Below the pieces are notes generated by a model. The model was not told where the DNA came from. It saw only the letters and a program-made list of their open reading frames with translations, and made no database searches. A stretch of 64,000 nucleotides of DNA from Acidobacteriota bacterium (GTDB lineage Bacteria; Acidobacteriota; UBA6911), in the NCBI GenBank assembly GCA_963664705.1, contig OY761556.1, forward strand, positions 5,600,001 through 5,664,000. Direction: 5' to 3'. The position numbers and the translations under genes were made by a program. This document shows positions 3,206 through 59,235 of the stretch, piece after piece (the stretch's first letter is position 1; the number at the start of each line of letters is the position of its first letter).

Positions 3206-4285
3206 ATGATCTACAACGGCGTGTCGAAAATTCGGGCTGCAGAAGAGCAATTGAAGAGAGCCATTGTTTTATTTTTCAAAAACGAAGACCCAATTTCTAC
3301 TCATACGTTGGCCTCGGCCGCGCAAGAAATCCTCGAATCCCTGGGCAAAAGGCAGGGTATAACAAGCCTGAAACAACAGGTCGTGAACCAGGCCGACGAA
3401 AGCAGAAGGGGCCAGTTCATAAATGCAATGAATGATGCCAAGAATGCATTCAAACATGCCGACAGAGACCCCGACGGAATAACAAAACTGAACCCCGAAT
3501 ACACCGAGTTGGTGCTATGGGATGCTGTGAATCTCTTCTATAAGGTGACCCAGCAGAAGATTCCTGCATTCGTTGTGTATGATCTTTGGATTTATTCGAG
3601 ATATCCGGAAATGCGCGATTTCACACCGGAGATCGAAAAACTCTACAAGGACACCCTGAACGGGCACAGCTATCAGAAAGAACACTTCCTGGACATGATT
3701 TCCAAGCTCGAAAATGAGCTAAAGAAAAATATAAAACCCCATGAAGAGATCCTGCACTTTAACAACAAGAATTTCGGACCTCCGGCCATCTTTCTCGATC
3801 CTTATACAAAGGTATGGAATGTCCTCTTCCCCCTCAACGGCGAACGGCCCGACAAGGCTGAAGAGGAGGTCATGATCAACTTTTATCTAACCGGCGTATG
3901 GGCAAGCGGAGAATCCCCGGATTGTATGGCCGGCCAGATCGCAGGCCAAATGACAAGAGACAAAGACAGGCTTATCGGGTTCCCCTTCATAGCTCCCGAC
4001 AACATCACCCGAAAACCAGCCCACTTTATATGGTCCTTCGATCCCCAAAAAGATCATGCCGATGTTTTTATCAGCAAAGTGCTGCCGATAGAGGACGGGG
4101 CCTTGTCCATCATATATAGGAAGAGAATAATGGGCAGCGGCAAGATGCTTGAAGAAAACATAAATGCGTGGCTGCTTCAAGACCTGCAATCGAATTTCGG
4201 CATTTCGAAAGAGATAGGGAATACCGGAATGGACGAATCATGGGTGGGCTACTTAAAGAACAAACGAATCCCGCAAGGTAATTAA
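3206..4285 (+). CDS. Hypothetical two-domain protein; N-terminal domain possibly HEPN-like
   Basis: 359-aa ORF in tandem with its neighbours; the KNAFKHADRDPD motif resembles Rx4H with K in place of R. Confidence 0.6.
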   Translation: MIYNGVSKIRAAEEQLKRAIVLFFKNEDPISTHTLASAAQEILESLGKRQGITSLKQQVVNQADESRRGQFINAMNDAKNAFKHADRDPDGITKLNPEYTELVLWDAVNLFYKVTQQKIPAFVVYDLWIYSRYPEMRDFTPEIEKLYKDTLNGHSYQKEHFLDMISKLENELKKNIKPHEEILHFNNKNFGPPAIFLDPYTKVWNVLFPLNGERPDKAEEEVMINFYLTGVWASGESPDCMAGQIAGQMTRDKDRLIGFPFIAPDNITRKPAHFIWSFDPQKDHADVFISKVLPIEDGALSIIYRKRIMGSGKMLEENINAWLLQDLQSNFGISKEIGNTGMDESWVGYLKNKRIPQGN

Positions 4286-12070: not shown

Positions 12071-12119
12071 AATTGACATTTTGGCGTTATCTCCTCGAAG
12101 CCCGTTTTAAGACAATAAC
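12071..12119 (+). repeat. Cassette-boundary site B
   Basis: AATTGACATTTTGGC GTTATCTCCTCGAA GCCCGT TTTAAGACAATAAC. Confidence 0.8.
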
Positions 12120-13266: not shown

Positions 13267-13300
13267 CGATTGTCCCGAAGTCCGATTCGGGGAAAGAATC
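13267..13300 (-). repeat. Cassette-boundary site C
   Basis: Minus strand: ATTCTTTCCCCGAA TCGGAC TTCGGGACAATCGC. Confidence 0.65.
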
Positions 13301-13365
13301 AGGAACTCATGCGAGCAGCAGTAGCGAGCCTCCGGGAGCACTGCACTCGTTGCCATGCGCCTGAA

Positions 13366-13869
13366 TCAGTTGACGAACGTAAGTTTTACCCTTTGCGACC
13401 GCAGGAAGTAGAATGTCCATATAGCACAGTGAATCGCGGTTCGTACCAGAGGGGAGGAATCGTAACCGCTGCCGGGATGGGCGGTAACAACGGCCACATT
13501 GTCGGATTGATTCAGGACTAACTTGGCAGCGTTTGATAGGAGTGGATGAAGACCGGCAGCTGCAACCATCACAACCAGCCATGCGATCATGATTTTGGGA
13601 AAAAGTTGTTTCTTTTTTACCAAGCAAAAAACGATTACCCCCTCAAGAATCAGTGGCACTGCGTTGAGCAAAAGCTCAGACGAGACAATGAACGCCAGTG
13701 AGTTTTGAAATCCATTGGAGCCCAAGCTGAAAGTTTCGCCTATGCCGCTATTCGAGAGAATATGGAAAATTGTATAAATTTGGTAAAAGGCGGAAATGGC
13801 AATCCATAGAACAGGAAAAATCAACCAGCCGCCAAATCCGCGAAGTTCCGATTGTCCTAAATCTTCCAT
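13366..13869 (-). CDS. DUF2569-like membrane protein
   Basis: GFGGWLIFP, KKKQLFP and IWTFYFLRSQRVKLTFV motifs. Confidence 0.8.
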   Translation of the reverse strand: MEDLGQSELRGFGGWLIFPVLWIAISAFYQIYTIFHILSNSGIGETFSLGSNGFQNSLAFIVSSELLLNAVPLILEGVIVFCLVKKKQLFPKIMIAWLVVMVAAAGLHPLLSNAAKLVLNQSDNVAVVTAHPGSGYDSSPLVRTAIHCAIWTFYFLRSQRVKLTFVN

Positions 13870-13988
13870 TCCAAGACCGTCCTATTTTGAGCAATGTAAT
13901 AGCTGGAGATTATTGCTGGAGCACCTTTGATGTCAATACTGGCATATGCTTCTTTGTAGAAATTGTCAGAAAGTAGAAGAATATCCTC

Positions 13989-14024
13989 CTTATTTTCCCT
14001 AAGTCCGGATATGAGAAAGAACCC
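13989..14024 (-). repeat. Cassette-boundary site D
   Basis: Minus strand: GG GTTCTTTCTCATAT CCGGAC TTAGGGAAAATAAG. Confidence 0.6.
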
Positions 14025-14054
14025 TGTTCGGAAGGATATGAGGTTGCAATCTAT

Positions 14055-14486
14055 TTAAACAAAATGCTCAACTAGATATTTGCCGATAGCTGTATCGAGG
14101 TCTTCCATTGGCGTGTAAAACATTTTCCATAACCGATCGTCATCATCGTCCGGAATCTCGCCTTTGTTTTGTTTGAATAATTCTCTGGCTTCCGACAGCC
14201 CAAGATAGCAATTAACCTTCCCGAATAGGGTCAATCCCAGCCTTACCTGCTCATCAAATCGCTCATCTAGATTTGACAAATAATTCTTGAATCCGTCGCT
14301 GCCAATCATTCCCCATGCTTGATGTGCTGCGATGATTTCTTTCAGAGGCGATTCGAACTCAGCAAGACCGTCCAAAAGCGATTCCTTGCTGAATAATATT
14401 GTCTCATACCAGCCGAAAAATGCTTCAAGGGCCTCTTTGGGATTATCTTTAGAGGCAATAATGCGTTCTCGCAGTCGTGGCAGCAT
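14055..14486 (-). CDS. Hypothetical protein, DUF4375/DMP19-like
   Basis: Acidic helical protein with DGFKNYL and LWKMFY; GAGGGA RBS. Confidence 0.55.
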   Translation of the reverse strand: MLPRLRERIIASKDNPKEALEAFFGWYETILFSKESLLDGLAEFESPLKEIIAAHQAWGMIGSDGFKNYLSNLDERFDEQVRLGLTLFGKVNCYLGLSEARELFKQNKGEIPDDDDDRLWKMFYTPMEDLDTAIGKYLVEHFV

Positions 14487-14566
14487 AAAAGATCCCTCAA
14501 AAGCGCTAAGCTCACTGTGTGACCGACTCTGATCGATTCAGTTTGAAATTTTAACACGAAACGATC

Positions 14567-14608
14567 GTTACTTTCCTGAAGTCGCATTCGCGGAGATAAC
14601 GCCAAATT
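14567..14608 (-). repeat. Cassette-boundary site E
   Basis: Minus strand: AATTTGGC GTTATCTCCGCGAA TGCGAC TTCAGGAAAGTAAC. Confidence 0.85.
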
Positions 14609-14802
14609 GTATATCTGCCACCATTAATGCTACATTCTACGCCAATCTACCCTTCTAGGATCGCCTTTTAATGGGAACTGGGCTAGATAATCGACCGTAT
14701 CATTAAGTATGAAATCATCTTCTTAGCGCTGGTAGGTGGACCCGGAGAAGTTGTTCGTCATAGCTCGTGGCTGACATACAATCTATCAAAAAGGAGCATA
14801 GA

Positions 14803-15555
14803 ATGCGCATCCGGTACCTGCTGCTTCTTGCTGCTCTCACGATCGCTCTTCAACACGGAATTACAAAAGACAAAATACTGAAGGAAAAGATTAACTCTGG
14901 CGATCGGGAGCGGAGCTATGTACTTTTCGTTCCAGAATCAATAGATCCAAACAAACCTGCACCTTTACTGATTACTTTGCACGGTTCCGGCCGCGATGGC
15001 TCGAGCCTGGTGGATCCTTGGAAGAAGCTGGCGAGAGAGAAGGGAATTATTCTTGCGGGTCCAAACGCATTGAGTTCTGGTGCCTGGATTACACCCACGG
15101 ACGGGCCCGTCTTCCTGCGGGATGTTGTCGATGCAGTGAAGGCCCGCTTCAGTATCGATTCAAAACGCGTGTACCTCTTCGGCCATTCCGGCGGAGGCGG
15201 TTTTGCAATCATTAATTCGATTTTAGAACCAAACTATTTTGCAGCCGCCGCAGTCCATGCTGGGGCTTTGCCGGTCCCAGAACAATTGGCTTCCTTCTTA
15301 CCGGCATCTCGAAGGGTCCCAATTTCAATTTGGGTGGGAGATCGCGATCCGTTCTTCCCCATGTCCGCCATGAAACCCACTGTGAATTTTCTACAGATCA
15401 ACGGATTTCCGGGGCAGTTTTCAGTATTGTTGAATCACGCCCACAATTACTACGGCATCGCAGATCGCGTGAACAAAGAGGCCTGGTTATTTCTTGAATC
15501 ACATGTCCTTGAAAATGAACCTGAATGGAACGAAATTCTTTTCAAAGAACGCTAA
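14803..15555 (+). CDS. Secreted alpha/beta hydrolase (PHB-depolymerase/esterase-like)
   Basis: LHGSG oxyanion motif, GHSGGG nucleophile elbow, GDRD and HAH. Confidence 0.85.
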   Translation: MRIRYLLLLAALTIALQHGITKDKILKEKINSGDRERSYVLFVPESIDPNKPAPLLITLHGSGRDGSSLVDPWKKLAREKGIILAGPNALSSGAWITPTDGPVFLRDVVDAVKARFSIDSKRVYLFGHSGGGGFAIINSILEPNYFAAAAVHAGALPVPEQLASFLPASRRVPISIWVGDRDPFFPMSAMKPTVNFLQINGFPGQFSVLLNHAHNYYGIADRVNKEAWLFLESHVLENEPEWNEILFKER

Positions 15556-15656
15556 GTACTGCCGTACTGGCCGCCCTTTCTTCGGCCAACGAATATTGCG
15601 ATGCTACAAAAGGCGAGAACCTTATCGAAGGGGGAAAACTGCGCAATTTTCATCGT

Positions 15657-15705
15657 GACGCTCCCATGATGTCGCGATCGGGGAAATTGTGCCAAAATGC
15701 TAATT
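15657..15705 (-). repeat. Cassette-boundary site F
   Basis: Minus strand: AATTAGCATTTTGGC ACAATTTCCCCGAT CGCGAC ATCATGGGAGCGTC. Confidence 0.7.
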
Positions 15706-15772
15706 TGCAGTCGTCCATGATGTGAGGAGGATGTTATAGTTGCGCGGTCCCACATCCCGCATGAGGAGTTCA

Positions 15773-16345
15773 ATGAAGAAATTATTTTTTATATTCTTTT
15801 TGTTCTCATCTTTGCCGGCAATTCTAGCCGCCCAAGAGGCACCCAAGTTTGAGGCATTCCTCGGTTATTCGCATTTCCGGATGCCAAGTGGATTTGATCT
15901 TGACGAGCTTTATCCAACCACAGAAGAAGCAAGGTTAAGTGGATTCGATATCACTATTACATGGAACATAAACCGATGGCTTGGTGCAGATGCCGATTTC
16001 GGGCATTATGATGGCAAGGTCAATTCAATGTTTGTAAAGACCGGTCGAATCAGCAGCCAAGACGCTTCAATCACCTCATATTTGTTTGGTCCCCGCGTGT
16101 TTTATCGCGTGAATCGATTTACTCCATTTGTCCATTCCTTATTCGGCGGTATGGCGTTAGGACGTGGACCGTACACTGGAAATGGGAGATCCGCAGCGGG
16201 TATTGCACTCGGGGGAGGCGTCGATATCAGCGTTGCCAGGCACTTTTCAGTTCGCGCAATTCAGGCTGATTACGTGAGAAGCGACTTTGTTCCAACGGGG
16301 CAAAATAATCTACGGTTATGCATTGGCGGAGTCCTTCGCTTCTGA
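15773..16345 (+). CDS. Outer-membrane beta-barrel protein
   Basis: Signal peptide; FLGYS, YLFGPR, PFVHSLFG and GGGVD; ends in Phe. Confidence 0.85.
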   Translation: MKKLFFIFFLFSSLPAILAAQEAPKFEAFLGYSHFRMPSGFDLDELYPTTEEARLSGFDITITWNINRWLGADADFGHYDGKVNSMFVKTGRISSQDASITSYLFGPRVFYRVNRFTPFVHSLFGGMALGRGPYTGNGRSAAGIALGGGVDISVARHFSVRAIQADYVRSDFVPTGQNNLRLCIGGVLRF

Positions 16346-16425
16346 GGTCGAGCCTTGGGGAATCTTACCGGCAAATATAAGTTAAGCCGCCGGTCTGATA
16401 CGCTTGGGTGTCACAGGATGGAATT

Positions 16426-16474
16426 GCCGTTGTCCTGAAATCAGCTTTGCCGAGATAGCGCCAAAATGGTAATT
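16426..16474 (-). repeat. Cassette-boundary site G
   Basis: Minus strand: AATTACCATTTTGGC GCTATCTCGGCAAA GCTGAT TTCAGGACAACGGC. Confidence 0.8.
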
Positions 16475-16525
16475 GACCTGTTTCAGAACTGTTTTCAACT
16501 TATCTGAAGCCTATAGGTTGGCGGC

Positions 16526-17290
16526 TCAATTTTCAGTTGGAATCCGCTTCGCATGATCGACGACTAGCATTTCAACCGGCGCTCTTCCAGGCTCCAGTTT
16601 CAACCCAAGCTGCTCCTGAATTGCGGTAAAAAGGCTCGGACCAGGTTGATTGCTGTCCTCTCCGTCTTCTGGAGTCCATTTCAGGCTGATGTCGAATGTC
16701 CCTGCCAATCCCGTGCGATCCACCACCTGGCATCCAGCAACGAACGACAAACTACCGGCAAGTGTTCCGATGAGCATGGACTTTCCAAATATTCCGCCGC
16801 GAAAGACCCTAACCGCCGGGCTTTCCCCGCGCACCTGTTCAGCCTCTTGGCCGCTATCCGTCTTTGGCACTTCCTTGAGCTTCGGCCCATTTTTTCCCAG
16901 CACCAGAAAGTACACTCGCTGCACTTTCATCTCTCGGTGGACCGACAGATTGAATCGTTCCGACAACAGTGCCCGCAACATGGCCGGAACTCGATCCTTC
17001 GGAGTGCCTGGAGGCAATTTTGCGGACAATCCATAGAATTGCTCATCCAGCCACTCGGGGCCACCCGTAACCAGGGGGCTGTCGAAGCCGTATGCGACAC
17101 TAATCAGGTTCTTGAGAGTGACGTTCGAATACCGCACCATGGCCGGATCGGAATCCATGGCGAAGAAAGCCGCGGTTCCCGTTTGCGGTTGGGCAAGCTT
17201 TACCGACGCTACTTCAAATGCCGCCGGTGCCTGCGGCCAGGCCGGAACAGATACGCAGCACAGAACGAGGGCGAGGACAATCTCTCTCAT
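16526..17290 (-). CDS. TIGR03435/DUF3738 family protein (Acidobacteria-expanded)
   Basis: AFEVASVK, GGPEWL, LLSERF, VVDRTGL, SLFTAIQEQLGLKLE and PTEN motifs. Confidence 0.92.
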   Translation of the reverse strand: MREIVLALVLCCVSVPAWPQAPAAFEVASVKLAQPQTGTAAFFAMDSDPAMVRYSNVTLKNLISVAYGFDSPLVTGGPEWLDEQFYGLSAKLPPGTPKDRVPAMLRALLSERFNLSVHREMKVQRVYFLVLGKNGPKLKEVPKTDSGQEAEQVRGESPAVRVFRGGIFGKSMLIGTLAGSLSFVAGCQVVDRTGLAGTFDISLKWTPEDGEDSNQPGPSLFTAIQEQLGLKLEPGRAPVEMLVVDHAKRIPTEN

Positions 17291-17373
17291 TGTTTCTACT
17301 CCTGCCGCTTTGGCTCCCAGAATACTCTATCCTACAGTTTCCTATTTTTATCAACAGAGTATCATCGGTCCTG

Positions 17374-17421
17374 GATTGTTCATGAAAAATCGCGTGCGAA
17401 GATAACTCCAGAATGGTAATT
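17374..17421 (-). repeat. Cassette-boundary site H
   Basis: Minus strand: AATTACCATTCTGGA GTTATCTTCGCACGCGATTTTTCATGAACAA. Confidence 0.7.
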
Positions 17422-18008: not shown

Positions 18009-18113
18009 CTATTCTAAATTAAAGTTCCCGGATAAATTGTGTTCAAGGAGATCCGCTGAGGACGGCGACAAGGGAAACTTCCATTTTGGATCAAAATCGT
18101 CATCGGCGGCAGT

Positions 18114-18148
18114 AATTACCATTTTGGCGTTATCTCCGCGAACGCGAC
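18114..18148 (+). repeat. Cassette-boundary site I, left part (right arm at 21585-21598)
   Basis: AATTACCATTTTGGC GTTATCTCCGCGAA CGCGAC | element | TTCCTGGGACCTTG. Confidence 0.85.
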
Positions 18149-18173
18149 ATAACCGGCCAATCGCTGCCCGTTT

Positions 18174-19310
18174 TTAGGCTCTGCGGAGTTTGCCCGCCTC
18201 TTTGATTATCTTGGTAAGGCGATTGGAGAGTCGGTTGAGGCATTTGCGTTCAACACCAATCGGCAGTCCGCGCCGAAACATCTCCATTGCACGTTGAGTG
18301 GCGTGCAATGAATCGATTACCCCATCTAAACCAGTTCGAATGGGATCTGACGGTCTCGGTTGAGGAACCAGGTGTCGGGGTTTTGAATGAGCCAGTTGAA
18401 ACTCTCTCTGAAGGTCTTTCAACGCCACTTCGATATAGAGCATTGTCATGTCCGGAGAAGTGTGGCCGAGTAATTTCATCAGTACAGGAAAACTGACGCC
18501 GGAGCGAAGCATCTCTGTGGCATAGGTGTGGCGAAACTGGTGTGGAACAATGCGAGTGGAGATTTCGAGAGAGTAACAAACTTCATGCAGATAATCGCGA
18601 AGTTGACGAACGAGAGCATACTTGGTGCTAGGCCGTGCAAGCAGTCGACCGTCAGGAGGACACGGATCTAGAAAACGAAAGAATCGCAAGCGTTGGATAA
18701 TCGCGACTATCGACGAATCCACCGGGACCATCCGTTCTGTTTTGAGTTTACCAAGTGGTACGTGAATGGCCCACTGGCGGAGACCGGTCGAGCGGAGGCA
18801 ATCGACGGGCAAATCGGCGCACTCGCCAATGCGCATGCCGGTATGGCGGAGGAGCAGAAAGACATTCGATCCCAGATCGTTGCGCTTGAGGAACTCCTTC
18901 TGCAGAAGCTGATCCTGTTCGGCGGTGAGCGGACGTGCAAGTCTGTGCGGGCGGCGAGGGATATCTTCACGACGAATCAAGCGGGCGACTTGAGGAAGCT
19001 GTTTGGTCCACGCCAGTTCTATGAACAGAGGGCGTAAAGCGATGAGCTTACCGATATAGGTGGATGTGGCGAGCGGAGGCGTCTGGGCGCGCAAGTGGGA
19101 CATCCAGCCGAGGAGGTGTGGCTCCCGCCGCAGTTGTTCGAGAGAATTCACCTCGGGGAAATGGGCGCCCAGATAAGTAAGGAAGTTGCGTACGGTCCCG
19201 CGATACTGGACCTGGCTTGCTGAGCCGAGCGCAATACAGAGCGAATCGACCGCGCGATCAAAGACATCAACCAGTGGATGTGAGAGGGGAGGACGCCAGG
19301 AGCGTTTCAT
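18174..19310 (-). CDS. Tyrosine recombinase B (copy 1)
   Basis: GMRIGE, GKLK, PHQFRH, LLGH and MLY give a complete R-K-H-R-H-Y set; helical C-terminal extension. Confidence 0.92.
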   Translation of the reverse strand: MKRSWRPPLSHPLVDVFDRAVDSLCIALGSASQVQYRGTVRNFLTYLGAHFPEVNSLEQLRREPHLLGWMSHLRAQTPPLATSTYIGKLIALRPLFIELAWTKQLPQVARLIRREDIPRRPHRLARPLTAEQDQLLQKEFLKRNDLGSNVFLLLRHTGMRIGECADLPVDCLRSTGLRQWAIHVPLGKLKTERMVPVDSSIVAIIQRLRFFRFLDPCPPDGRLLARPSTKYALVRQLRDYLHEVCYSLEISTRIVPHQFRHTYATEMLRSGVSFPVLMKLLGHTSPDMTMLYIEVALKDLQREFQLAHSKPRHLVPQPRPSDPIRTGLDGVIDSLHATQRAMEMFRRGLPIGVERKCLNRLSNRLTKIIKEAGKLRRA

Positions 19311-20353
19311 GAAGGGAGCCTCGGAAGGGGGCGGACTTGCAGCGCTACTGCGCGCGTATATTGCTGGTAAACGTCTTGTGGGGTGACCTGCACATAATGC
19401 AGGGTCGTCTGAATATCGGAATGCCCCATCAACTGCATAAGTGCCGGCAGGCTGATTCCGGCGCGTATCATATCGGAGGCGAAAGTGTGGCGGAACCGAT
19501 GCGGGTGAGCAAGCTTAATACCAGTACGCTTGCGGTGGTAACGGAACAATGACCTCAGTCCGGCCAGAGTCATACGGGTTCCGCGGGCCTGCCCCTTTAG
19601 CGAGACGAAAAGCGCAGCGGTGGCAACCTGGGGCCGTTCCATCCGCCGATAGTGGTCGAGGAGCTGCACGGTTTCCGGCGCCAGTGGCAGTAAGCGTAAT
19701 TTGTTGCCTTTGCCGCGTACGCGCAGCTGTGCTTCGGAGAGCAACAAGTCGTCCTGATTTAGACCCAACACTTCGGCCGAGCGCAGTCCTTGAAAAAGCA
19801 TCACTCCAACAAGAGCCAAATCGCGAGCCATGCGGAAACTGGACCAAAAACGTGCCACCTCGTCCACCGAGAGCGGAACAAGTTGGCGTTTGGGCACCTT
19901 CACTCGCAGCCGGCTCATGGCCAGCCGTCGACGGCCCAGGCCCAGCGGTCCACGCCGCAAATAAACATGCTGGAAGCCCTGTGCCATGGACGAGGGGGAG
20001 TCAGGAAACTGATTGCGAAGAGCGCGATCGGCAACGCCAACACGGTGATTGATTGTATAACTGGAAATCGGGGGTTGGTGGTTACACTGAAACTTCAGAT
20101 AATCCGGGAGAGTCGATTCGGTCAGGTCGGCTGTGCAAACATCGGCGGTGTGATGAAGACTCTCCCACCAGCGAACAAAATGTAGCAGGTAGTAAGCCCA
20201 TGCTCGCAGAGTAGTATCCGCCAACCGGCGGACATACTCGTGATCGAGGTAGCGATTGACCCAGCCAATCTCCTGACCAGTTTCTTGCTCGACCACACGA
20301 ACCGGGCTTTGTGCGGTGTTGCGAATCTGCGGGCGAATCACACAAAATTTCAT
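19307..20353 (-). CDS. Tyrosine recombinase A (copy 1)
   Basis: GLRSAE, GKGNK, PHRFRH, MGHS and LHY; likely start MKFCVI at 20353; ATGA overlap with B. Confidence 0.92.
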   Translation of the reverse strand: MKFCVIRPQIRNTAQSPVRVVEQETGQEIGWVNRYLDHEYVRRLADTTLRAWAYYLLHFVRWWESLHHTADVCTADLTESTLPDYLKFQCNHQPPISSYTINHRVGVADRALRNQFPDSPSSMAQGFQHVYLRRGPLGLGRRRLAMSRLRVKVPKRQLVPLSVDEVARFWSSFRMARDLALVGVMLFQGLRSAEVLGLNQDDLLLSEAQLRVRGKGNKLRLLPLAPETVQLLDHYRRMERPQVATAALFVSLKGQARGTRMTLAGLRSLFRYHRKRTGIKLAHPHRFRHTFASDMIRAGISLPALMQLMGHSDIQTTLHYVQVTPQDVYQQYTRAVALQVRPLPRLPS

Positions 20354-20390
20354 AGCAGAGCCAAGCTCCAGAAAAGAATGTGTATCAGAG

Positions 20391-20708
20391 TCAGGCAGCA
20401 GGAAGTTCAAGTACCTGGTAGACTCCATCTTTGAATGCGATCAGATCTCGCGCCAGGAGTTCATTACGGGCGCCGGTAAGTTCGTGGCGGTGATGAATCT
20501 CGAGGAGTTCCTCCATACGTTCGTCGGAGTAAAAACTCACACCATCTCGATTAGCAACTGAGACCAAGACCAAGTAGAGAAGCTTTTCCAAGCGGGTTAG
20601 TCCCTGATCGAAACCCTGCCGAAAAAAGCGATGGTCAATCCAACTGAAAGAACCGCTGATGGCGCGGAGTCGGTCCGGCTGTAGCGGTTGAGGTCGTTTG
20701 TTCATCAT
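20391..20708 (-). CDS. Small winged-helix/replication-initiator-like protein (copy 1)
   Basis: FSWIDHRF, LLYLVL, GVSFYSD and YQVLEL motifs. Confidence 0.7.
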   Translation of the reverse strand: MMNKRPQPLQPDRLRAISGSFSWIDHRFFRQGFDQGLTRLEKLLYLVLVSVANRDGVSFYSDERMEELLEIHHRHELTGARNELLARDLIAFKDGVYQVLELPAA

Positions 20709-20787
20709 GCTTTCCCCATTTTGTACATGCCGAAATTAACGAAGCTATATGGGATGAATCAATATGTCGGGACTAAATCTAACAAGC

Positions 20788-21291
20788 TCATCGGCGGCTG
20801 CGGTGACGCTCCGACCAACGCCTCTCTCGCTCCCAAACTCGTTCGAGAGCGCGGCGACATGCATAGGAACAGAAGCGTTGCAGGGGCGACCGCCGGCTGC
20901 GGTGGAATTCTTGGTATCAACCAGGGCGATCGCAGGAACACGAAAATAAGTTTCTTATAATGACCCTCGCTTCGGGGGCCGGGCCCTTGTTTTGTTGCGT
21001 GCGCTCCTTTTGCCGCACTCTGTATCTGTGGCTTTGAACGCGGCGAACCTGCTTTCCACCATCAGTTTTGCGGTACTTTTGCCGGGCTTTCCACTCTCTC
21101 CATTTTCCCGCCTCATTGCGGCAATGCTCGCTACAATAGCGTGCTCGGGGGTGTTCCGGCCGGAATATGCGACCGCAGTCTTTCAGCAAACACGCACGGG
21201 CGCGCGGCCATCTAGCTTTTCGCCTGGTATGGGGTCTTGTTCCTTTTGCTTGATTTTGAAGGAGAATTATCGGATGTTCACGAGGGCCCAT
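20788..21291 (-). CDS. Basic double Zn-finger protein with an in-frame TGA at 20917-20919 (copy 1)
   Basis: CLLKDC...YCSEHC, then CDRPG*Y...FCSYAC; the frame stays open for 42 more codons past the TGA. Confidence 0.65.
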
Positions 21292-21689
21292 GGGAGTTGC
21301 CTCTCCCAGAAGCTCAAGCCTCGAGGGGGACCCATTCCCCTTCGGGGCACACTGAGCACAATTGGATGCAATATCCTTAACCCTGCTCTTAGATTAGGAT
21401 CGGAAATAAAACCGGCGAGATTACTCGAAAATCAAATTCGATTTGCCGAGTAGTTGTTGTTGCGAAGCACCGTGAAAAAAAGCAGAAGTATAAGGGAAAA
21501 GCTATATTTATACTGCTTCACAACTTGAAGAATTACCGAAAGACTTTATAGACCAATTTTAAACATTGGCCGGTTATTTTGGACTTCCTGGGACCTTGGA
21601 AAACTTTCACAAATTAGGTAGGCATTCTTATACCTATTACGTTCTTGTTATTAGGAACAGTGGAGGACTTATAGGGAGGGTATTGCGCA

Positions 21690-22430
21690 ATGAGAAAGGC
21701 ATCTATTCTTATAATTTTCGCAGGGCTAGTTGTTTTTGTGCTCATTAATGTTCGATATATTTCGGGTTCTTGCATAACTCCCGGTCCTCCATGCCAGGAG
21801 TTTTGGCGTGCAAACGCGGTATTTGCTGGGCGTGTTATATCTGTCACCGACGACACAGCGAAATGGCCGTCTAATCTGAGCTATCAGGAACTGAATAAGC
21901 TTGATCCATCAACAGCCGTGCATGTGGTGTTTGATGTCAGCGAACCATTTCGAGGGGTAAGCGAATCCAAGATTGAAGTCCTAACAGGCAGTCGAGGTCC
22001 TAAGGTATGGTCTTCGGAGGCCTTTGATTTTAGAGTCGGGCAGGAATATATCGTCTATGCATCCCGGCTAACATCACGACCTGACCTTTATACCTCAGGA
22101 TGCGCACGGACTCGCTTGATCCAAAATGCGGCAGAAGATTTGGCCTATGCTCGATCTTTGGCTACGAGCACAGCAACCGGAGCCCAAATATTTGGAACAG
22201 TTTTTTCGCCCATAACTCAAAAACCCATAAGTGGCATCCAGATATCGCTCTTGCTGGGTCAAAAAAGTTGGAAAACTAAGACCAATTCGGATGGCGATTT
22301 CGTATTTACCGGAAAGCCCGTGGGTGATTATCAAGTATTGCTTCCCAGCGGAAGGCAAATTTCTGCCAGTGTTTTGGATGTCAAAGGATGCGCATGCATG
22401 GGAAAAATTCCGGATAGGTTGGACCGATGA
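21690..22430 (+). CDS. Secreted protein with TIMP/NTR-like domain and carboxypeptidase-regulatory-like domain
   Basis: SC...PCQEF...AVFAGRV, FRVGQEYIVYA, CARTR and TNSDGDFVF motifs. Confidence 0.75.
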   Translation: MRKASILIIFAGLVVFVLINVRYISGSCITPGPPCQEFWRANAVFAGRVISVTDDTAKWPSNLSYQELNKLDPSTAVHVVFDVSEPFRGVSESKIEVLTGSRGPKVWSSEAFDFRVGQEYIVYASRLTSRPDLYTSGCARTRLIQNAAEDLAYARSLATSTATGAQIFGTVFSPITQKPISGIQISLLLGQKSWKTKTNSDGDFVFTGKPVGDYQVLLPSGRQISASVLDVKGCACMGKIPDRLDR

Positions 22431-22450
22431 GAAGTAACTGATTTTGAGGA

Positions 22451-22485
22451 AATTTACTTTTTGGCGTTATCTCCCACAATCGGAC
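22451..22485 (+). repeat. Cassette-boundary site J, left part (right arm at 25922-25935)
   Basis: AATTTACTTTTTGGC GTTATCTCCCACAA TCGGAC | element | ATATTGGGATTTAC. Confidence 0.85.
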
Positions 22486-22510
22486 ATAACCGGCCAATCG
22501 CTGCCCGTTT

Positions 22511-23647
22511 TTAGGCTCTGCGGAGTTTGCCCGCCTCTTTGATTATCTTGGTAAGGCGATTGGAGAGTCGGTTGAGGCATTTGCGTTCAACACCAATCGG
22601 CAGTCCGCGCCGAAACATCTCCATTGCACGTTGAGTGGCGTGCAATGAATCGATTACCCCATCTAAACCAGTTCGAATGGGATCTGACGGTCTCGGTTGA
22701 GGAACCAGGTGTCGGGGTTTTGAATGAGCCAGTTGAAACTCTCTCTGAAGGTCTTTCAACGCCACTTCGATATAGAGCATTGTCATGTCCGGAGAAGTGT
22801 GGCCGAGTAATTTCATCAGTACAGGAAAACTGACGCCGGAGCGAAGCATCTCTGTGGCATAGGTGTGGCGAAACTGGTGTGGAACAATGCGAGTGGAGAT
22901 TTCGAGAGAGTAACAAACTTCATGCAGATAATCGCGAAGTTGACGAACGAGAGCATACTTGGTGCTAGGCCGTGCAAGCAGTCGACCGTCAGGAGGACAC
23001 GGATCTAGAAAACGAAAGAATCGCAAGCGTTGGATAATCGCGACTATCGACGAATCCACCGGGACCATCCGTTCTGTTTTGAGTTTACCAAGTGGTACGT
23101 GAATGGCCCACTGGCGGAGACCGGTCGAGCGGAGGCAATCGACGGGCAAATCGGCGCACTCGCCAATGCGCATGCCGGTATGGCGGAGGAGCAGAAAGAC
23201 ATTCGATCCCAGATCGTTGCGCTTGAGGAACTCCTTCTGCAGAAGCTGATCCTGTTCGGCGGTGAGCGGACGTGCAAGTCTGTGCGGGCGGCGAGGGATA
23301 TCTTCACGACGAATCAAGCGGGCGACTTGAGGAAGCTGTTTGGTCCACGCCAGTTCTATGAACAGAGGGCGTAAAGCGATGAGCTTACCGATATAGGTGG
23401 ATGTGGCGAGCGGAGGCGTCTGGGCGCGCAAGTGGGACATCCAGCCGAGGAGGTGTGGCTCCCGCCGCAGTTGTTCGAGAGAATTCACCTCGGGGAAATG
23501 GGCGCCCAGATAAGTAAGGAAGTTGCGTACGGTCCCGCGATACTGGACCTGGCTTGCTGAGCCGAGCGCAATACAGAGCGAATCGACCGCGCGATCAAAG
23601 ACATCAACCAGTGGATGTGAGAGGGGAGGACGCCAGGAGCGTTTCAT
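22511..23647 (-). CDS. Tyrosine recombinase B (copy 2)
   Basis: Translation identical to 18174-19310. Confidence 0.92.
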   Translation of the reverse strand: MKRSWRPPLSHPLVDVFDRAVDSLCIALGSASQVQYRGTVRNFLTYLGAHFPEVNSLEQLRREPHLLGWMSHLRAQTPPLATSTYIGKLIALRPLFIELAWTKQLPQVARLIRREDIPRRPHRLARPLTAEQDQLLQKEFLKRNDLGSNVFLLLRHTGMRIGECADLPVDCLRSTGLRQWAIHVPLGKLKTERMVPVDSSIVAIIQRLRFFRFLDPCPPDGRLLARPSTKYALVRQLRDYLHEVCYSLEISTRIVPHQFRHTYATEMLRSGVSFPVLMKLLGHTSPDMTMLYIEVALKDLQREFQLAHSKPRHLVPQPRPSDPIRTGLDGVIDSLHATQRAMEMFRRGLPIGVERKCLNRLSNRLTKIIKEAGKLRRA

Positions 23648-24690
23648 GAAGGGAGCCTCGGAAGGGGGCGGACTTGCAGCGCTACTGCGCGCGTATATTG
23701 CTGGTAAACGTCTTGTGGGGTGACCTGCACATAATGCAGGGTCGTCTGAATATCGGAATGCCCCATCAACTGCATAAGTGCCGGCAGGCTGATTCCGGCG
23801 CGTATCATATCGGAGGCGAAAGTGTGGCGGAACCGATGCGGGTGAGCAAGCTTAATACCAGTACGCTTGCGGTGGTAACGGAACAATGACCTCAGTCCGG
23901 CCAGAGTCATACGGGTTCCGCGGGCCTGCCCCTTTAGCGAGACGAAAAGCGCAGCGGTGGCAACCTGGGGCCGTTCCATCCGCCGATAGTGGTCGAGGAG
24001 CTGCACGGTTTCCGGCGCCAGTGGCAGTAAGCGTAATTTGTTGCCTTTGCCGCGTACGCGCAGCTGTGCTTCGGAGAGCAACAAGTCGTCCTGATTTAGA
24101 CCCAACACTTCGGCCGAGCGCAGTCCTTGAAAAAGCATCACTCCAACAAGAGCCAAATCGCGAGCCATGCGGAAACTGGACCAAAAACGTGCCACCTCGT
24201 CCACCGAGAGCGGAACAAGTTGGCGTTTGGGCACCTTCACTCGCAGCCGGCTCATGGCCAGCCGTCGACGGCCCAGGCCCAGCGGTCCACGCCGCAAATA
24301 AACATGCTGGAAGCCCTGTGCCATGGACGAGGGGGAGTCAGGAAACTGATTGCGAAGAGCGCGATCGGCAACGCCAACACGGTGATTGATTGTATAACTG
24401 GAAATCGGGGGTTGGTGGTTACACTGAAACTTCAGATAATCCGGGAGAGTCGATTCGGTCAGGTCGGCTGTGCAAACATCGGCGGTGTGATGAAGACTCT
24501 CCCACCAGCGAACAAAATGTAGCAGGTAGTAAGCCCATGCTCGCAGAGTAGTATCCGCCAACCGGCGGACATACTCGTGATCGAGGTAGCGATTGACCCA
24601 GCCAATCTCCTGACCAGTTTCTTGCTCGACCACACGAACCGGGCTTTGTGCGGTGTTGCGAATCTGCGGGCGAATCACACAAAATTTCAT
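23644..24690 (-). CDS. Tyrosine recombinase A (copy 2)
   Basis: Translation identical to 19307-20353. Confidence 0.92.
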   Translation of the reverse strand: MKFCVIRPQIRNTAQSPVRVVEQETGQEIGWVNRYLDHEYVRRLADTTLRAWAYYLLHFVRWWESLHHTADVCTADLTESTLPDYLKFQCNHQPPISSYTINHRVGVADRALRNQFPDSPSSMAQGFQHVYLRRGPLGLGRRRLAMSRLRVKVPKRQLVPLSVDEVARFWSSFRMARDLALVGVMLFQGLRSAEVLGLNQDDLLLSEAQLRVRGKGNKLRLLPLAPETVQLLDHYRRMERPQVATAALFVSLKGQARGTRMTLAGLRSLFRYHRKRTGIKLAHPHRFRHTFASDMIRAGISLPALMQLMGHSDIQTTLHYVQVTPQDVYQQYTRAVALQVRPLPRLPS

Positions 24691-24727
24691 AGCAGAGCCA
24701 AGCTCCAGAAAAGAATGTGTATCAGAG

Positions 24728-25045
24728 TCAGGCAGCAGGAAGTTCAAGTACCTGGTAGACTCCATCTTTGAATGCGATCAGATCTCGCGCCAGGAGTTCA
24801 TTACGGGCGCCGGTAAGTTCGTGGCGGTGATGAATCTCGAGGAGTTCCTCCATACGTTCGTCGGAGTAAAAACTCACACCATCTCGATTAGCAACTGAGA
24901 CCAAGACCAAGTAGAGAAGCTTTTCCAAGCGGGTTAGTCCCTGATCGAAACCCTGCCGAAAAAAGCGATGGTCAATCCAACTGAAAGAACCGCTGATGGC
25001 GCGGAGTCGGTCCGGCTGTAGCGGTTGAGGTCGTTTGTTCATCAT
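24728..25045 (-). CDS. Small winged-helix/replication-initiator-like protein (copy 2)
   Basis: Identical to 20391-20708. Confidence 0.7.
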   Translation of the reverse strand: MMNKRPQPLQPDRLRAISGSFSWIDHRFFRQGFDQGLTRLEKLLYLVLVSVANRDGVSFYSDERMEELLEIHHRHELTGARNELLARDLIAFKDGVYQVLELPAA

Positions 25046-25124
25046 GCTTTCCCCATTTTGTACATGCCGAAATTAACGAAGCTATATGGGATGAATCAAT
25101 ATGTCGGGACTAAATCTAACAAGC

Positions 25125-25628
25125 TCATCGGCGGCTGCGGTGACGCTCCGACCAACGCCTCTCTCGCTCCCAAACTCGTTCGAGAGCGCGGCGACATGCA
25201 TAGGAACAGAAGCGTTGCAGGGGCGACCGCCGGCTGCGGTGGAATTCTTGGTATCAACCAGGGCGATCGCAGGAACACGAAAATAAGTTTCTTATAATGA
25301 CCCTCGCTTCGGGGGCCGGGCCCTTGTTTTGTTGCGTGCGCTCCTTTTGCCGCACTCTGTATCTGTGGCTTTGAACGCGGCGAACCTGCTTTCCACCATC
25401 AGTTTTGCGGTACTTTTGCCGGGCTTTCCACTCTCTCCATTTTCCCGCCTCATTGCGGCAATGCTCGCTACAATAGCGTGCTCGGGGGTGTTCCGGCCGG
25501 AATATGCGACCGCAGTCTTTCAGCAAACACGCACGGGCGCGCGGCCATCTAGCTTTTCGCCTGGTATGGGGTCTTGTTCCTTTTGCTTGATTTTGAAGGA
25601 GAATTATCGGATGTTCACGAGGGCCCAT
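25125..25628 (-). CDS. Double Zn-finger protein with an in-frame TGA at 25254-25256 (copy 2)
   Basis: Identical to 20788-21291, including the TGA. Confidence 0.65.
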
Positions 25629-26008
25629 GGGAGTTGCCTCTCCCAGAAGCTCAAGCCTCGAGGGGGACCCATTCCCCTTCGGGGCACACTGAGCACAATT
25701 GGATGCAATATCCTTAACCCTGCTCTTAGATTAGGATCGGAAATAAAACCGGCGAGATTACTCGAAAATCAAATTCGATTTGCCGAGTAGTTGTTGTTGC
25801 GAAGCACCGTGAAAAAAAGCAGAAGTATAAGGGAAAAGCTATATTTATACTGCTTCACAACTTGAAGAATTACCGAAAGACTTTATAGACCAATTTTAAA
25901 CATTGGCCGGTTATTTTGGACATATTGGGATTTACTCCATTTATAAATTGGAAGGTGTGGGATCATGAAGCTGTAGTATAAAAGTATAATTCAGCACTTT
26001 GGTGAATC

Positions 26009-26945: not shown

Positions 26946-26994
26946 ACTTTGCATTATGGCGTTATCTCCGCGAAGCCGACATCAAAGGAGTATC
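26946..26994 (+). repeat. Cassette-boundary site K
   Basis: ACTTTGCATTATGGC GTTATCTCCGCGAA GCCGAC ATCAAAGGAGTATC. Confidence 0.8.
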
Positions 26995-27480: not shown

Positions 27481-27529
27481 CATTGTATATAAGGCGCTAT
27501 TTCCTACAATGAGACTACAGGAAAACAAC
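27481..27529 (+). repeat. Cassette-boundary site L
   Basis: CATTGTATATAAGGC GCTATTTCCTACAA TGAGAC TACAGGAAAACAAC. Confidence 0.7.
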
Positions 27530-28740: not shown

Positions 28741-29493
28741 TCATGCGTCCTCCCCGGCAGCGCGACCAGCGCGTTGGTGAAGACGAAAACTCTTTCCCTG
28801 CATCTGAATGACTTCAGCATGAGCCAGGAAGCGGTCGAGAATGGCTGTGGCCGCCGGGATGTCGCCGAGGAACTGGCCCCAATCCTGAGTGGGCCGATTT
28901 GTTGTAATCAGCGTCGATGTTCTTTCGTGACGGCGCACGAAAATCTCCAATAAATCCTCCGCGCCACTGGGACCGAGCTTCTTCATGCCGAAGTCTTCGA
29001 GGATCAGAAGATCGACTCGCGTGAGTTGATCGACAAGCAAGCGCCGTTCGCCGGTGGCTTCCGCTTCCGCAAAATCCTGAGCCAGGTCGAAGACGCTCCG
29101 AACAAGGGCTCTATGCCCCGCACGAATGGCCCCGACGGCGATAGCGATTGCGATATGGGTTTTGCCGATGCCGGGCGGTCCAATCAGCAGGACGCCCTGA
29201 TGTGAGGCAATGAAGCGAGCTGTGGCCAAATCAACGAGCTTTGCGCGAGGAATCTTGGAGTTAAAAGAGAAATCAAAATCAGAAAGCTCCTTGATCTGGA
29301 CAATGCCGGCCTGTTTGAGACGGCGAGCGAAGAGGCGGTCCGAGCGCCGAGCAAGCTCGTCCGAGACGAGGAGTTCGAGAAACTCCATGTAATCCAGAGG
29401 GGCGCTACGGGCTTGTTCAAGGCGACCAGGCAGCGCTTGAACAATGCCGGAAAGACGGAGATGCCGGAGCTGTGACAGCAGTTGCGGGTTCAT
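28741..29493 (-). CDS. istB: IS21 helper ATPase
   Basis: GPPGIGKT, LLILEDFG, TTNR, AILDR and GKSFR motifs. Confidence 0.95.
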   Translation of the reverse strand: MNPQLLSQLRHLRLSGIVQALPGRLEQARSAPLDYMEFLELLVSDELARRSDRLFARRLKQAGIVQIKELSDFDFSFNSKIPRAKLVDLATARFIASHQGVLLIGPPGIGKTHIAIAIAVGAIRAGHRALVRSVFDLAQDFAEAEATGERRLLVDQLTRVDLLILEDFGMKKLGPSGAEDLLEIFVRRHERTSTLITTNRPTQDWGQFLGDIPAATAILDRFLAHAEVIQMQGKSFRLHQRAGRAAGEDA

Positions 29494-31064
29494 AAAAAAT
29501 CCTCCAGGCGATAATCGGTTAAGGGACGAATGATGGGATGTTCGGAAAGAAGAGTTTGGACTGGCGATTTTGCCGCCTGTTGTTCAGTTAGCCGCTGCAG
29601 ATCCTTATAGCGAAACAATCGGTTGACGGTGGCCGTCCGGGCAGCCGCCAACACACGTTCGCGGGGATGCTGACGCGTCAAACCGAGGACGCCCTGAATC
29701 AGCCGTAGAGCCCGCACGCCTCGTTCTTCGATGGCTGCTTCGGCCCATTCGCGCAGTGCCGTTCCGACACGTTCGCAACGGGCGAGCAACTGGGCTGCAA
29801 AAGCCTTCTGCGAGGAAGGTGCCACCCCCGGTTCACCGGAACGGGGAGCAAACTGGCCCGGTCGCAAGCGTGTATAGACGGCGACTTGGGTTTCGTCGTG
29901 ATACAGGCGCACGAGGTTGCGATCCCAACGCACCCGGATCTTTTGTCCCAGAAGATGTAACGGTGCCGGATAAAAAGCTCCGTCGACTTCGACATGCCCA
30001 TCGGGGTGAATGGTGCGTTGCCCGGTGCGGAAGAAAGCAAACGGCTCTGTAGCGAGCGGTTGCAATGCTGCTTTCTCCGCCTCAAGAAAATGGGTAAAGA
30101 CCTGACGGCGGGTGGTGCCGTGAATCCGCAAGCGAGCGATGGTTCTATTCCAGCGCCGGAGATGCTCGTTCTGCTCGGCGAGGCTATTGAAGCGGCGACC
30201 TTTGAGAGCGTTATCTTTGACATAACCACCGCTGCGTTCCTGCTTGCCGTTCTCCTGGGGATTGCGCGGACGGGTAGGCAAAGGCGTGAAGCCCCAGTGC
30301 GTGGCAAAGGCTGCATAGATCACGTTAACGTCCGGATCATAGAGGCATGCCCGGACAACTGCTGCCTTCAGATTGTCATGCCTAATAACCTTCGGAACGC
30401 CGCCCAGATCGGTAAAGGCGTTTTCGTGCAGGCGAAGAAAGGTCTCGAGGCTTTGATCCCAGACAGCTTCTTCATAACCGTGCCGGGAGTGACACAAAGT
30501 CAAACGGAACACCCATGGACGTTTCCATTGACCGCTTGTCTCATCAAGCGTGGGAACTCCCTGGAAAAAATCAACCTGGCCTTCTTCACCAGGCGCGCTA
30601 TGAAATACCCCGACTGCGCGACGAGCCCGGGGCAGTTTCCGGATGAAACGTTTGACAGCTTCGTAGCTGTATCCGAATCCGTAGTCCTCGCCCAGATCCT
30701 GCCAGATGCGCTGAACAGACAAACCGGCGTCCAGCTTGGAGACGATCACATCGCGATAGCGGGCTGCCGAAGATCGTGGTGGGGGATCGGACCCGGCGAA
30801 CACTTTGGCCGGATTTGAATCCGAGCCGGCGGTCACTTTGGCCGGTTTTGGCGGATCGGATCCCTCAAACTCGTTGGTTTCAGTGACTGCAGGCTCCCCA
30901 GAGCCGGGGAACACTTTGGCCGCTTTTGCTTTCTGCAGGCGATCGTATCGGGAGATGGTTTCTCGCCGGACTCCCGTTTCAGCTTCTATGCGCCGGTATG
31001 TCCAACCGAGTTCAAGAAGAGCAGTAACTTGTTGCAGCTTTGGCGTTTTCAAGTAGTTCGGCAC
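29490..31064 (-). CDS. istA: IS21 DDE transposase
   Basis: PGEEGQVDF, GGVP...DNLKAAV, ENGKQE and RIHGTT motifs. Confidence 0.95.
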   Translation of the reverse strand: MPNYLKTPKLQQVTALLELGWTYRRIEAETGVRRETISRYDRLQKAKAAKVFPGSGEPAVTETNEFEGSDPPKPAKVTAGSDSNPAKVFAGSDPPPRSSAARYRDVIVSKLDAGLSVQRIWQDLGEDYGFGYSYEAVKRFIRKLPRARRAVGVFHSAPGEEGQVDFFQGVPTLDETSGQWKRPWVFRLTLCHSRHGYEEAVWDQSLETFLRLHENAFTDLGGVPKVIRHDNLKAAVVRACLYDPDVNVIYAAFATHWGFTPLPTRPRNPQENGKQERSGGYVKDNALKGRRFNSLAEQNEHLRRWNRTIARLRIHGTTRRQVFTHFLEAEKAALQPLATEPFAFFRTGQRTIHPDGHVEVDGAFYPAPLHLLGQKIRVRWDRNLVRLYHDETQVAVYTRLRPGQFAPRSGEPGVAPSSQKAFAAQLLARCERVGTALREWAEAAIEERGVRALRLIQGVLGLTRQHPRERVLAAARTATVNRLFRYKDLQRLTEQQAAKSPVQTLLSEHPIIRPLTDYRLEDFL

Positions 31065-32156: not shown

Positions 32157-32193
32157 ATAAATCCTAAGAAACGGGCTTGTAGGAAACTATCCC
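32157..32193 (-). repeat. Cassette-boundary site N
   Basis: Minus strand: GGG ATAGTTTCCTACAA GCCCGT TTCTTAGGATTTAT; same spacer as site B. Confidence 0.55.
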
Positions 32194-42871: not shown

Positions 42872-43267
42872 ATGAACGAAAGACAAATCTTCCGGAATAT
42901 CCAGCACGTTCCCAAGGTCTGGGGAGTTACCTACCTGAAACTCTTCGCAACCCTGGGATCCGGACTTCTGGCGACCACCCTCGGATTCTTTTTGAGCTCC
43001 GGGGCTACGGCACTAGTGAAGGTAATGGTGATCGGGCTGGGAGTAGTTGTTACGGCCATCCTTTATGGAATCTCTTTCTGGATCGATAACACCGATCAAC
43101 TGGATCGGGATTCGGCCGGTTTTCTTCGTAACGAAATGAACTCCCAGTCCCTGTCGTTGCAAAGGCTTCAATTGTTACACGGAGAGGCGATCCATGCGGA
43201 TTCGCGATCTATTGCGGGACGTGAACCGGTACGAACAGAAGTTAGAGAACATCCTGCTGTATGTTGA
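42872..43267 (+). CDS. VirB3-like membrane protein
   Basis: IFR...PKVWGV then two TM segments; immediately upstream of virB4. Confidence 0.6.
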   Translation: MNERQIFRNIQHVPKVWGVTYLKLFATLGSGLLATTLGFFLSSGATALVKVMVIGLGVVVTAILYGISFWIDNTDQLDRDSAGFLRNEMNSQSLSLQRLQLLHGEAIHADSRSIAGREPVRTEVREHPAVC

Positions 43268-46453: not shown

Positions 46454-46460
46454 GGATCTC

Positions 46461-47438: not shown

Positions 47439-47448
47439 GGAGGGGCTG

Positions 47449-51885: not shown

Positions 51886-51896
51886 TGGAGGAGGCC

Positions 51897-52691: not shown

Positions 52692-52702
52692 GGAGCTTTG
52701 CG

Positions 52703-53811: not shown

Positions 53812-53938
53812 AAGAGACTGAGCTGACACAGGGCGAGCCAGACTCCAGGTATTACCCGGCAGGCACGGTAGAAAGAACACGTCAGGAGCATGAAAACAGG
53901 AAGTTGAATGAGACCGATTTTACCCAATAGGAGGAGCT

Positions 53939-54754: not shown

Positions 54755-54756
54755 CG

Positions 54757-57468: not shown

Positions 57469-57477
57469 GGAGGCGCC

Positions 57478-57831: not shown

Positions 57832-57903
57832 TCCTTGCCGGTTACCCACCAGGGGAGTGGTGGAAATTCTAGGATTGGTGCCTTCCAATCCTAGACGCAA
57901 TAC

Positions 57904-59227: not shown

Positions 59228-59235
59228 GTGGCTGC

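Follow-up and report, generated by a model that had tools for sequence, protein, structure and literature searches.

The locus described here is a 64-kb window of an Acidobacteriota genome (the whole stretch of DNA analysed, 64,000 nucleotides of contig OY761556.1; source genome G000). It holds two copies of a small two-recombinase transposon, each lodged inside a site of a repeat array. Other G and L numbers denote related genomes and loci, X numbers denote sequencing runs, and positions refer to the window unless a genome or locus is named. The two copies are identical at 3436 of 3436 bases and form the sole long repeat of the window. Each copy is bounded by a perfect 13-bp inverted repeat at either end, and the 7-mer TTTGGAC lies outside the right repeat. 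Four minus-strand open reading frames fill each copy, encoding a 124-residue cysteine protein, a 105-residue protein, and the tyrosine recombinases YR-A and YR-B. A single-gene module separates the copies. All coordinates are collected in Table 1.

Table 1. Coordinates of array sites, element copies and related loci (window positions unless a locus or genome is named).
Feature	Position	Strand	Remarks
Empty site with long tail, second spacer class	12089-12116	+	spacer ends CGT
Empty core-only site	13269-13296	-	no tail; found with matrix from foreign insertions
Empty core-only site	13992-14019	-	found with same matrix
Empty array site with long tail (site E)	14570-14597	-	also referred to by position 14603
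Empty array site with long tail	15660-15687	-
Degenerate array site with long tail	16429-16456	-	spacer ends GAT
Long conserved tail upstream of site 1 core	18112-18131	+	found in a subset of array sites; dispensable for targeting
Left 11-bp arm, occupied site 1	18132-18142	+
6-bp spacer of site 1	18143-18148	+	target-derived, ends GAC
Element copy 1	18149-21584	.	3436 bp including 7-bp footprint
Terminal inverted repeat, recombinase-gene end	18149-18161	+	13 bp; conserved across relatives
YR-B tyrosine recombinase	18174-19310	-	378 residues; R160 K188 H257 R260 H283 Y292
YR-A tyrosine recombinase	19307-20428	-	373 residues as called; R216 K240 H310 R313 H336 Y345
105-residue protein, probable winged helix	20391-20708	-	887 database relatives, no Pfam family
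124-residue basic protein	20917-21291	-	four-Cys motif; no family assigned
Terminal inverted repeat, footprint end	21565-21577	+	13 bp
Fixed 7-bp footprint TTTGGAC	21578-21584	+	spacer of predicted circle junction
Single-gene module between copies	21585-22485	+	includes right arm of site 1
Reading frame of intervening module	21690-22430		246 residues; carboxypeptidase-regulatory-like domain
Left arm of site 2	22469-22479		within intervening module
Spacer of site 2	22480-22485		within intervening module
Element copy 2	22486-25921	.	inverted repeats 22486-22498 and 25902-25914; footprint 25915-25921
Reading frames of copy 2	22511-23647; 23644-24765; 24728-25045; 25254-25628		YR-B; YR-A; 105-residue protein; 124-residue protein
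Right 11-bp arm, occupied site 2	25922-25932	+
Empty array site with long tail	26964-26991	+
Empty site with degenerate tail	27499-27526	+	weaker matrix site
Empty core-only site, second spacer class	32160-32187	-	spacer ends CGT; weaker matrix site
IS91-type element, related loci	L258 1067-3545; L259; L260; L261; L281
IS91-type element, remnants	G000:C1 5121731-5122277 and 5018290-5018341

An initial annotation of this DNA had proposed that both copies split array sites at the spacer, that the joined element ends form a 13-7-13 palindrome, and that the element carries four genes. The sequence bears this out. When either copy is taken out, its flanks join into a site that resembles the neighbouring empty sites, including site E, and the joined ends, which are the predicted circle junction, give a perfect 13-7-13 arrangement exactly as written. 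All four reading frames are present, and both recombinases have catalytic residues that align with those of XerC and XerD from the same genome. The annotation had also stated that only GAC is shared at the junctions. This is true of copy 1, but copy 2 shares GGAC with the element 7-mer.

It is conceivable that the pair reflects duplication, whether in the assembly or in tandem through homologous recombination, instead of two insertions. The copies are, after all, identical and only 901 bp apart. However, all four flanks differ, and each pair of flanks rebuilds a separate site. Sequencing depth also argues against duplication. In X19-X21, the probable source sample (one sample, not independent of the assembly, with short-read contigs), the element is covered to a depth of 22-53 and the flanks to 7.6-7.9, a ratio of about 3-7. 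Furthermore, one contig of single depth runs from the right end of an element, through the middle module, to the left end of an element. We consider a duplication scarcely credible. With a copy on each side, the module becomes part of a 7.8-kb unit that might conceivably be mobile as a composite. A search of positions 11000-33000 against Rfam gave no matches, and a scan of positions 21200-21720 found no promoter or terminator.

The array sites themselves have a definable frame. With the elements removed, G000 contains 35 sites with a long tail, nearly all in five clusters, and the matrix for these sites had no matches in two reversed-genome controls, which set the chance level for sites. Arm symmetry of the host core is greatest when the spacer is 6 bp (5.24 of 11 positions, against 4.13 of 11 for a 7-bp spacer; n = 100 genus sites), and the same peak is found in 62 sites of another lineage. 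The symmetry test thus upholds the 6-bp spacer frame of the initial annotation, and disfavours a 12-7-12 site. Note that the joined element ends are symmetric about 7 bp, versus 6 bp for the host site. The spacer trinucleotide GAC is conserved in 67 of 79 sites, partly by selection of those sites. Such arrays are shared by many related soil bacteria: long tails mark sites in 18 of the 29 genus relatives that served for comparing the distribution of arrays and recombinases, many assemblies of which are fragmented. Loci chosen around genus sites, and hence a selected sample, contained 84 core matches, versus none in controls.

Several peculiarities of these arrays should be recorded. A block of minus-strand sites (13269-17409) lies between plus-strand sites, which suggests an inversion within the array. 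Three long-tail sites elsewhere in G000 (C1 5884034, 5887802, and 5894143) have an apparent 5-bp deletion in the spacer and are probably dead. We rejected the idea that the long tail is a XerD arm joined to the XerC half of a dif site, since the spacing is one base short of the genome's dif and the crossover lies elsewhere. The candidate dif (G000:C1 2036985-2037012) adjoins xerD, near the GC-skew maximum.

What the element recognises is best seen from insertions in other genomes. A search with the footprint end gave 8 metagenome contigs and matches in 6 of 50 family relatives; none was found in viral contigs. There are 12 foreign insertions of the TTTGGAC footprint type with both flanks, two of them full-length and ten non-coding derivatives (183-251 bp) that carry the same ends as the full element. 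In all 12, the left spacer ends in GAC and lies within a core site. Together with the four copies in G000 (those in the window and two more, at 2926841 and 5024300), this makes 16 of 16 insertions in core sites, all with one polarity. Hence, the element does recognise array sites, as the initial annotation had it, but the long GGCGTTATCTCC-type consensus is not the recognised target, since only 3 of the 12 foreign insertions have the long tail. The target is the 11-6-11 core and not the long repeat.

A matrix built from the nine tail-less foreign insertions leads back to the arrays. In G000, array sites take up 18 of the 30 best-ranked genome positions and 24 of the best 100. Twenty-one positions score above 20 bits, against 1 and 0 in the controls, and 19 of these are long-tail sites or fall inside long-tail clusters. 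The matrix also reveals tail-less intergenic sites inside the same clusters, including two in the window, along with weaker matches (Table 1). Under this matrix, occupancy of long-tail sites by 4 of 4 G000 copies is unremarkable (p about 0.18), and so needs no added explanation.

Other insertions show variations on this theme. Non-coding derivatives with the same inverted repeat and other footprints (G000:C1 2937480-2937729; L174 1924-2107; L177 13221-13405) enter core sites of the second spacer class, ending CGT or TGT. In X1 and X3, two samples from one study, loose ends at window positions 21553-21585 suggest a tiny palindrome inside an array site, made of two footprint ends placed back to back.

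A YR-A search of species genomes returned 315 relatives, of which the best 80 loci were kept for family comparisons. Acidobacteriota taxa are named in the record titles of 76 of these 80. Relatives have the inverted repeat in common. The two upstream genes of the window copies were seen among them only in L001; of 13 loci inspected, 12 instead have a Zn-ribbon protein and a DnaG-like primase upstream, the family assignments being confirmed only for L002 and L043. Both ends could be resolved in 54 of the 80 loci. At these, the footprint equals the target spacer at positions 1-3 beside the cut in 52 cases and at position 4 in 47, while positions 5, 6, and 7 agree in 13, 4, and 29 cases. Five footprints cover 42 of the 54 loci, versus 31 distinct target spacers. 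Likewise, within multi-copy genomes the footprint is constant and the targets differ (6 of 6 copies in G075, 4 of 4 in G000, and 4 of 4 at L007-L009 and L011). The element-side 7-mer is, in short, largely fixed within each subfamily. This is also true across sequence variants, for the two further G000 copies are 99.97% alike and only 93.4% alike to the window pair; one of them has a frameshift in the cysteine-protein gene. The initial annotation had suggested asking whether the flanks of homologous elements rebuild the same consensus. Same-footprint insertions are all in core sites, but the long consensus is rare among them and other lineages use a variant consensus.

Two further family members differ in their surroundings. 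A distant subfamily (47% YR-A identity) has identical 3922-bp copies in G028 (L165 6000-9921 and L166), with another footprint and not at array sites. In G075, a three-recombinase element interrupts YR-A of a primase-type relative, twice at the same position (L256 4303-7883 and L257).

We predict, from the junctions, that the element moves by exchange of one strand followed by replication. The recombinases would join both ends on one strand only, and replication would release a circle, whose 13-7-13 junction would always carry the element's own 7-mer. The circle would then attack an array site by exchanging a single strand at the GAC edge, for which 3 homologous bp would suffice. Replication would resolve the insertion so that one junction keeps the target spacer and the opposite junction has the footprint, splitting the site into two hybrids. 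Probably one recombinase binds the inverted repeats of the element while its partner binds the host arms; such a division by arm type would explain why two recombinases are kept. The upstream genes (a probable winged helix and a cysteine protein here, a DnaG-like primase in most relatives) probably aid second-strand synthesis or regulate. XerC-only integration of the CTX phage parallels such a one-strand route.

The same parasite might instead exchange both strands when it excises and integrates, tolerating a mismatched spacer in the manner of Tn916-type elements and leaving the spacers to be sorted by repair or replication. Both enzymes have full catalytic sets, which would suit this route. 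In addition, one empty array site in G000 (5876379) has a spacer equal to the 7-bp footprint of the element, and is a possible excision scar. However, such a site is expected by chance at about 0.07 (a rough product of spacer frequencies). A two-strand route would leave target-derived spacers on either side, and the footprint side is constant in each multi-copy genome. The spacers are unequal (7 versus 6 bp) and homology is only 3 bp; the 7-bp donor symmetry meets a 6-bp host symmetry, a poor fit with full reciprocal exchange. For these reasons, we favour one-strand exchange and regard the two-strand route as improbable.

Both recombinases match PF00589 and neither reaches the cut-off of a named NCBIfam. 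The R-K-H-R-H-Y catalytic set is complete in each. YR-A probably starts at Met26 (about position 20353), giving 348 residues, because this methionine is invariant in the family alignment. The predicted structure of YR-B (mean pLDDT 73) matches the folds of XerA and Cre, and has two extra C-terminal helices. The nearest annotated proteins are pairs from actinobacterial plasmids (about 350 and 640 residues). Within one such pair, YR-A is 34% identical to the short partner and YR-B is 34% identical to the C-terminal portion of the 637-residue recombinase (aligned residues 207-519). The two accessory proteins had been labelled a Zn finger and a winged helix-turn-helix protein. For the first, the cysteine motif is visible, but family searches assigned it nowhere. 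The 105-residue protein is a probable winged helix: the top structural matches of its low-confidence model are winged-helix proteins, though none reaches E<=0.001.

The repeats themselves are likely to behave as true recombination sites, as the initial annotation had argued. Comparing 79 sites, we found 9 pairs in which module homology between genomes is one-sided, with its boundary no more than 11 bp from the cut. Members are shared among three of the 9 breakpoint pairs; the remaining comparisons either overlapped or aligned across the site or away from it. The second line of evidence is that another type of element uses the same bond. This unrelated element encodes a recombinase of about 288 residues and an IS91-family transposase. 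Its left end is at the same array-site bond in 6 of the 8 copies that have that end, and it closes with its own fixed right-hand 7-mer, again ending GAC. Six of 29 relatives carry a near-complete version of it, and G000 has remnants only. We regard it as a candidate engine of the arrays or a second parasite. Its distribution makes it attractive as an engine, but its ends depart from the 11-6-11 frame and the catalytic motif is substituted in the G017 copy; it stands as a lead. Short hairpin pieces that match only its right end occur at L185 (about 4119-4190), L201, L171, L103, and L275; in L185 and L201, the piece directly follows an array site.

Comparable sites accompany relatives of the element in another lineage. 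Beside primase-type relatives, 13 extra same-strand sites of their own variant consensus were found in 7 of 20 loci, versus none in controls; one of the 13 is another element end. Five primase-type genomes have 10-39 pattern matches each, some of them element ends, versus 0-1 in controls, and a single G076 contig has 18 same-strand sites in 44 kb. Two other subfamilies have no neighbouring same-strand sites (0 in 6 loci and 0 in 5 loci). Large arrays in this other lineage lie at G076:C24 75-119 kb, C47 47-95 kb, and C28 80-88 kb, and at G075:C2 4238-4286 kb. Many of their sites have an inverted site of the second spacer class 45-60 bp upstream, which makes imperfect hairpins.

The initial annotation had left it undecided whether the element is the engine of the array or a parasite of it. 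We think it probable that the element is a small transposon living on array sites as a site-hunting parasite; an engine is the less likely of the two. The arrays were probably built by another recombinase. Two elements with foreign ends converge on one bond, and insertion destroys the site, which favours parasitism. Distribution points the same way. Arrays are found in 18 of 29 genus relatives, whereas the recombinase pair is in 2 of 29, one of these being a distant subfamily not at array sites. Moreover, element ends are unlike module ends. The other 27 relatives have no lone gene resembling YR-A or YR-B above the generic Xer level. G014, which is 99% complete in about 10 contigs, contains 9 long sites without any recombinase match, and G076 has 39 pattern matches yet one, damaged, element copy.

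All of this counts against the element being the visiting engine of the arrays, which we consider doubtful but worth setting out. The subunit that binds host arms would also recombine array site with array site, and the presence of an autonomous copy in the cell would mobilise modules, just as it must mobilise the short non-coding derivatives. A number of observations favour such an engine or otherwise weigh against simple parasitism. Element target and array core match very closely and shift together between two lineages, the matrix for the primase type putting only 2 array sites in the G000 top 30; this is also what an engine would give. Non-coding derivatives persist in G024, G029, G007, and G006, all without a recombinase match; hence, present absence does not exclude past action of the family on the arrays. 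The module breakpoints of the 9 pairs lie within 11 bp of the cut used by the element, GAC is conserved in the spacers, and the array site at G000 5876379 has the element's own 7-mer. There is no resident integrase beside most clusters, and genome searches identified no alternative engine. Parasitism also sits awkwardly with the subfamilies that show no neighbouring sites. Finally, neither a circle junction nor an empty-site joint was found in contigs of X19-X21, X23, X1, X3, and X5, or in 2 reads of X24, a weak negative because contigs drop rare forms.

A wider version of the engine idea is that Acidobacteriota have an undescribed, integron-like system in these arrays, whose symmetric 11-6-11 sites would lack a resident integrase and be worked in trans by recombinase elements that come and go. 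The two-enzyme element would then be one such engine, with one subunit reading the array arms and shuffling modules by only 3 bp of homology and the other moving the element. This, too, we hold to be unlikely. Phage-type integrases near two G000 clusters were set aside as builders of the arrays, since they are absent beside other clusters.

Turning to known systems, the host array resembles pdif and dif modules in having 28-bp 11-6-11 sites between one-gene modules. Unlike in dif modules, neither arm is a XerD arm, and sites are mostly directly repeated, not alternating. Both array arms are moderately XerC-like (4.9-6.4 of 11), with XerD-like scores of 3.1-5.4, and do not clearly track the genome's own dif. 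The mostly direct-repeat runs, far from any integrase, also recall integron cassette arrays, and in particular attC clusters without an integrase. However, attC sites cross over at GTT, whereas here the crossover follows GAC. No integron integrase (TIGR02249) was found in G000 or G075-G079, although 5 of 29 relatives matched. Folding z-scores have medians of -0.2 (35 G000 sites) and -0.9 (40 of 64 G075/G076 sites), with no general hairpin signal. On these three grounds, we rejected an attC reading of the sites.

For the element itself, we compared mobile elements that hunt for recombination sites. IS1111 elements parasitise attC in a fixed orientation. Such site-hunting insertion sequences use DDE or DEDD transposases, unlike the tyrosine recombinases found here. 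ISAjo2/IS1202 at pdif is an ecological parallel, in that a mobile element exploits, always in one orientation, the sites at which a module system recombines (PMC10132070). ISAjo2 lands beside its site with a 5-bp duplication, whereas our element enters the spacer edge itself (PMC10132070).

Among tyrosine recombinase elements, the Tn554 family and actinobacterial Tn554-like tnpAB(C) pairs share two adjacent, co-oriented recombinases, site specificity, and no target duplication (PMC3414803). The actinobacterial plasmid pairs mentioned above have the layout called Tn554-like in that paper. Our element differs in that about 200 N-terminal residues of the long partner are missing from YR-B; its enzymes have 373 and 378 residues, whereas the family pairs an ordinary recombinase with one of over 600. 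It also has no TnpC gene, its YR-B stops 13 bp before the terminal repeat, accessory genes lie upstream, and its ends are perfect 13-bp repeats. Tn554 carries the hexamer of its previous target (6 bp of the donor left flank), in contrast to the fixed 7-mer footprint here.

The elements named SEs have two catalytic tyrosine recombinases, inverted ends of 13-19 bp, and a few selected targets (PMC10214605). As here, the target spacer is at one junction and the circle spacer at the other (SE features ii-iii; PMC10214605). However, SEs depend on IntA, Tfp, a large IntB, and Srap, and our element, with two enzymes of ordinary size, is set apart by gene order and sizes. Further, SEs copy 6 bp of the donor left flank and come from Gammaproteobacteria; the element has a constant 7-bp spacer and Acidobacteriota hosts. 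RIT elements are alike in their length of about 3.5 kb, in having recombinase genes that overlap and inverted repeats at the ends, and in occurring as several copies per genome (PMC3414803, PMC10214605, PMC5737581), but they have three recombinases and longer repeats, against two recombinases here. RIT trios do occur in G075 and G076; their ends are unrelated to the sites, and the copies compared are not at core sites, so we rejected them as array residents.

On gene content and footprint, the element is not a member of the Tn554, SE, or RIT groups. It is well supported as a site-specific two-recombinase transposon, working like an SE or Tn554-type element and living, ecologically, like ISAjo2 at pdif. 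We found no published description of the element or the arrays, in a search that lay largely outside the subscription journals.

To the right of the array are an IS21-type element with IstA and IstB (28741-31064) and a conjugation region (43194-61946) with VirB-like genes, a TrwC relaxase, and a coupling protein.

Our analysis provides evidence, at the level of sequence, that a widespread repeat of Acidobacteriota is a working recombination site, with the crossover mapped to one bond shared by two unrelated element types and by miniature derivatives. The element is a compact test system for questions posed by Tn554-, SE-, and RIT-type elements, such as what keeps a pair of catalytic recombinases in place, and how a donor spacer of 7 bp can engage a 6-bp target when 3 bp are homologous. 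Some subfamilies share an inverted repeat and differ in their 3-bp codes and target arms; they offer a natural series for mapping target choice, and this could serve tools for site-specific integration. Much of the element's interest is owed to the arrays, and the array itself may be the larger discovery.

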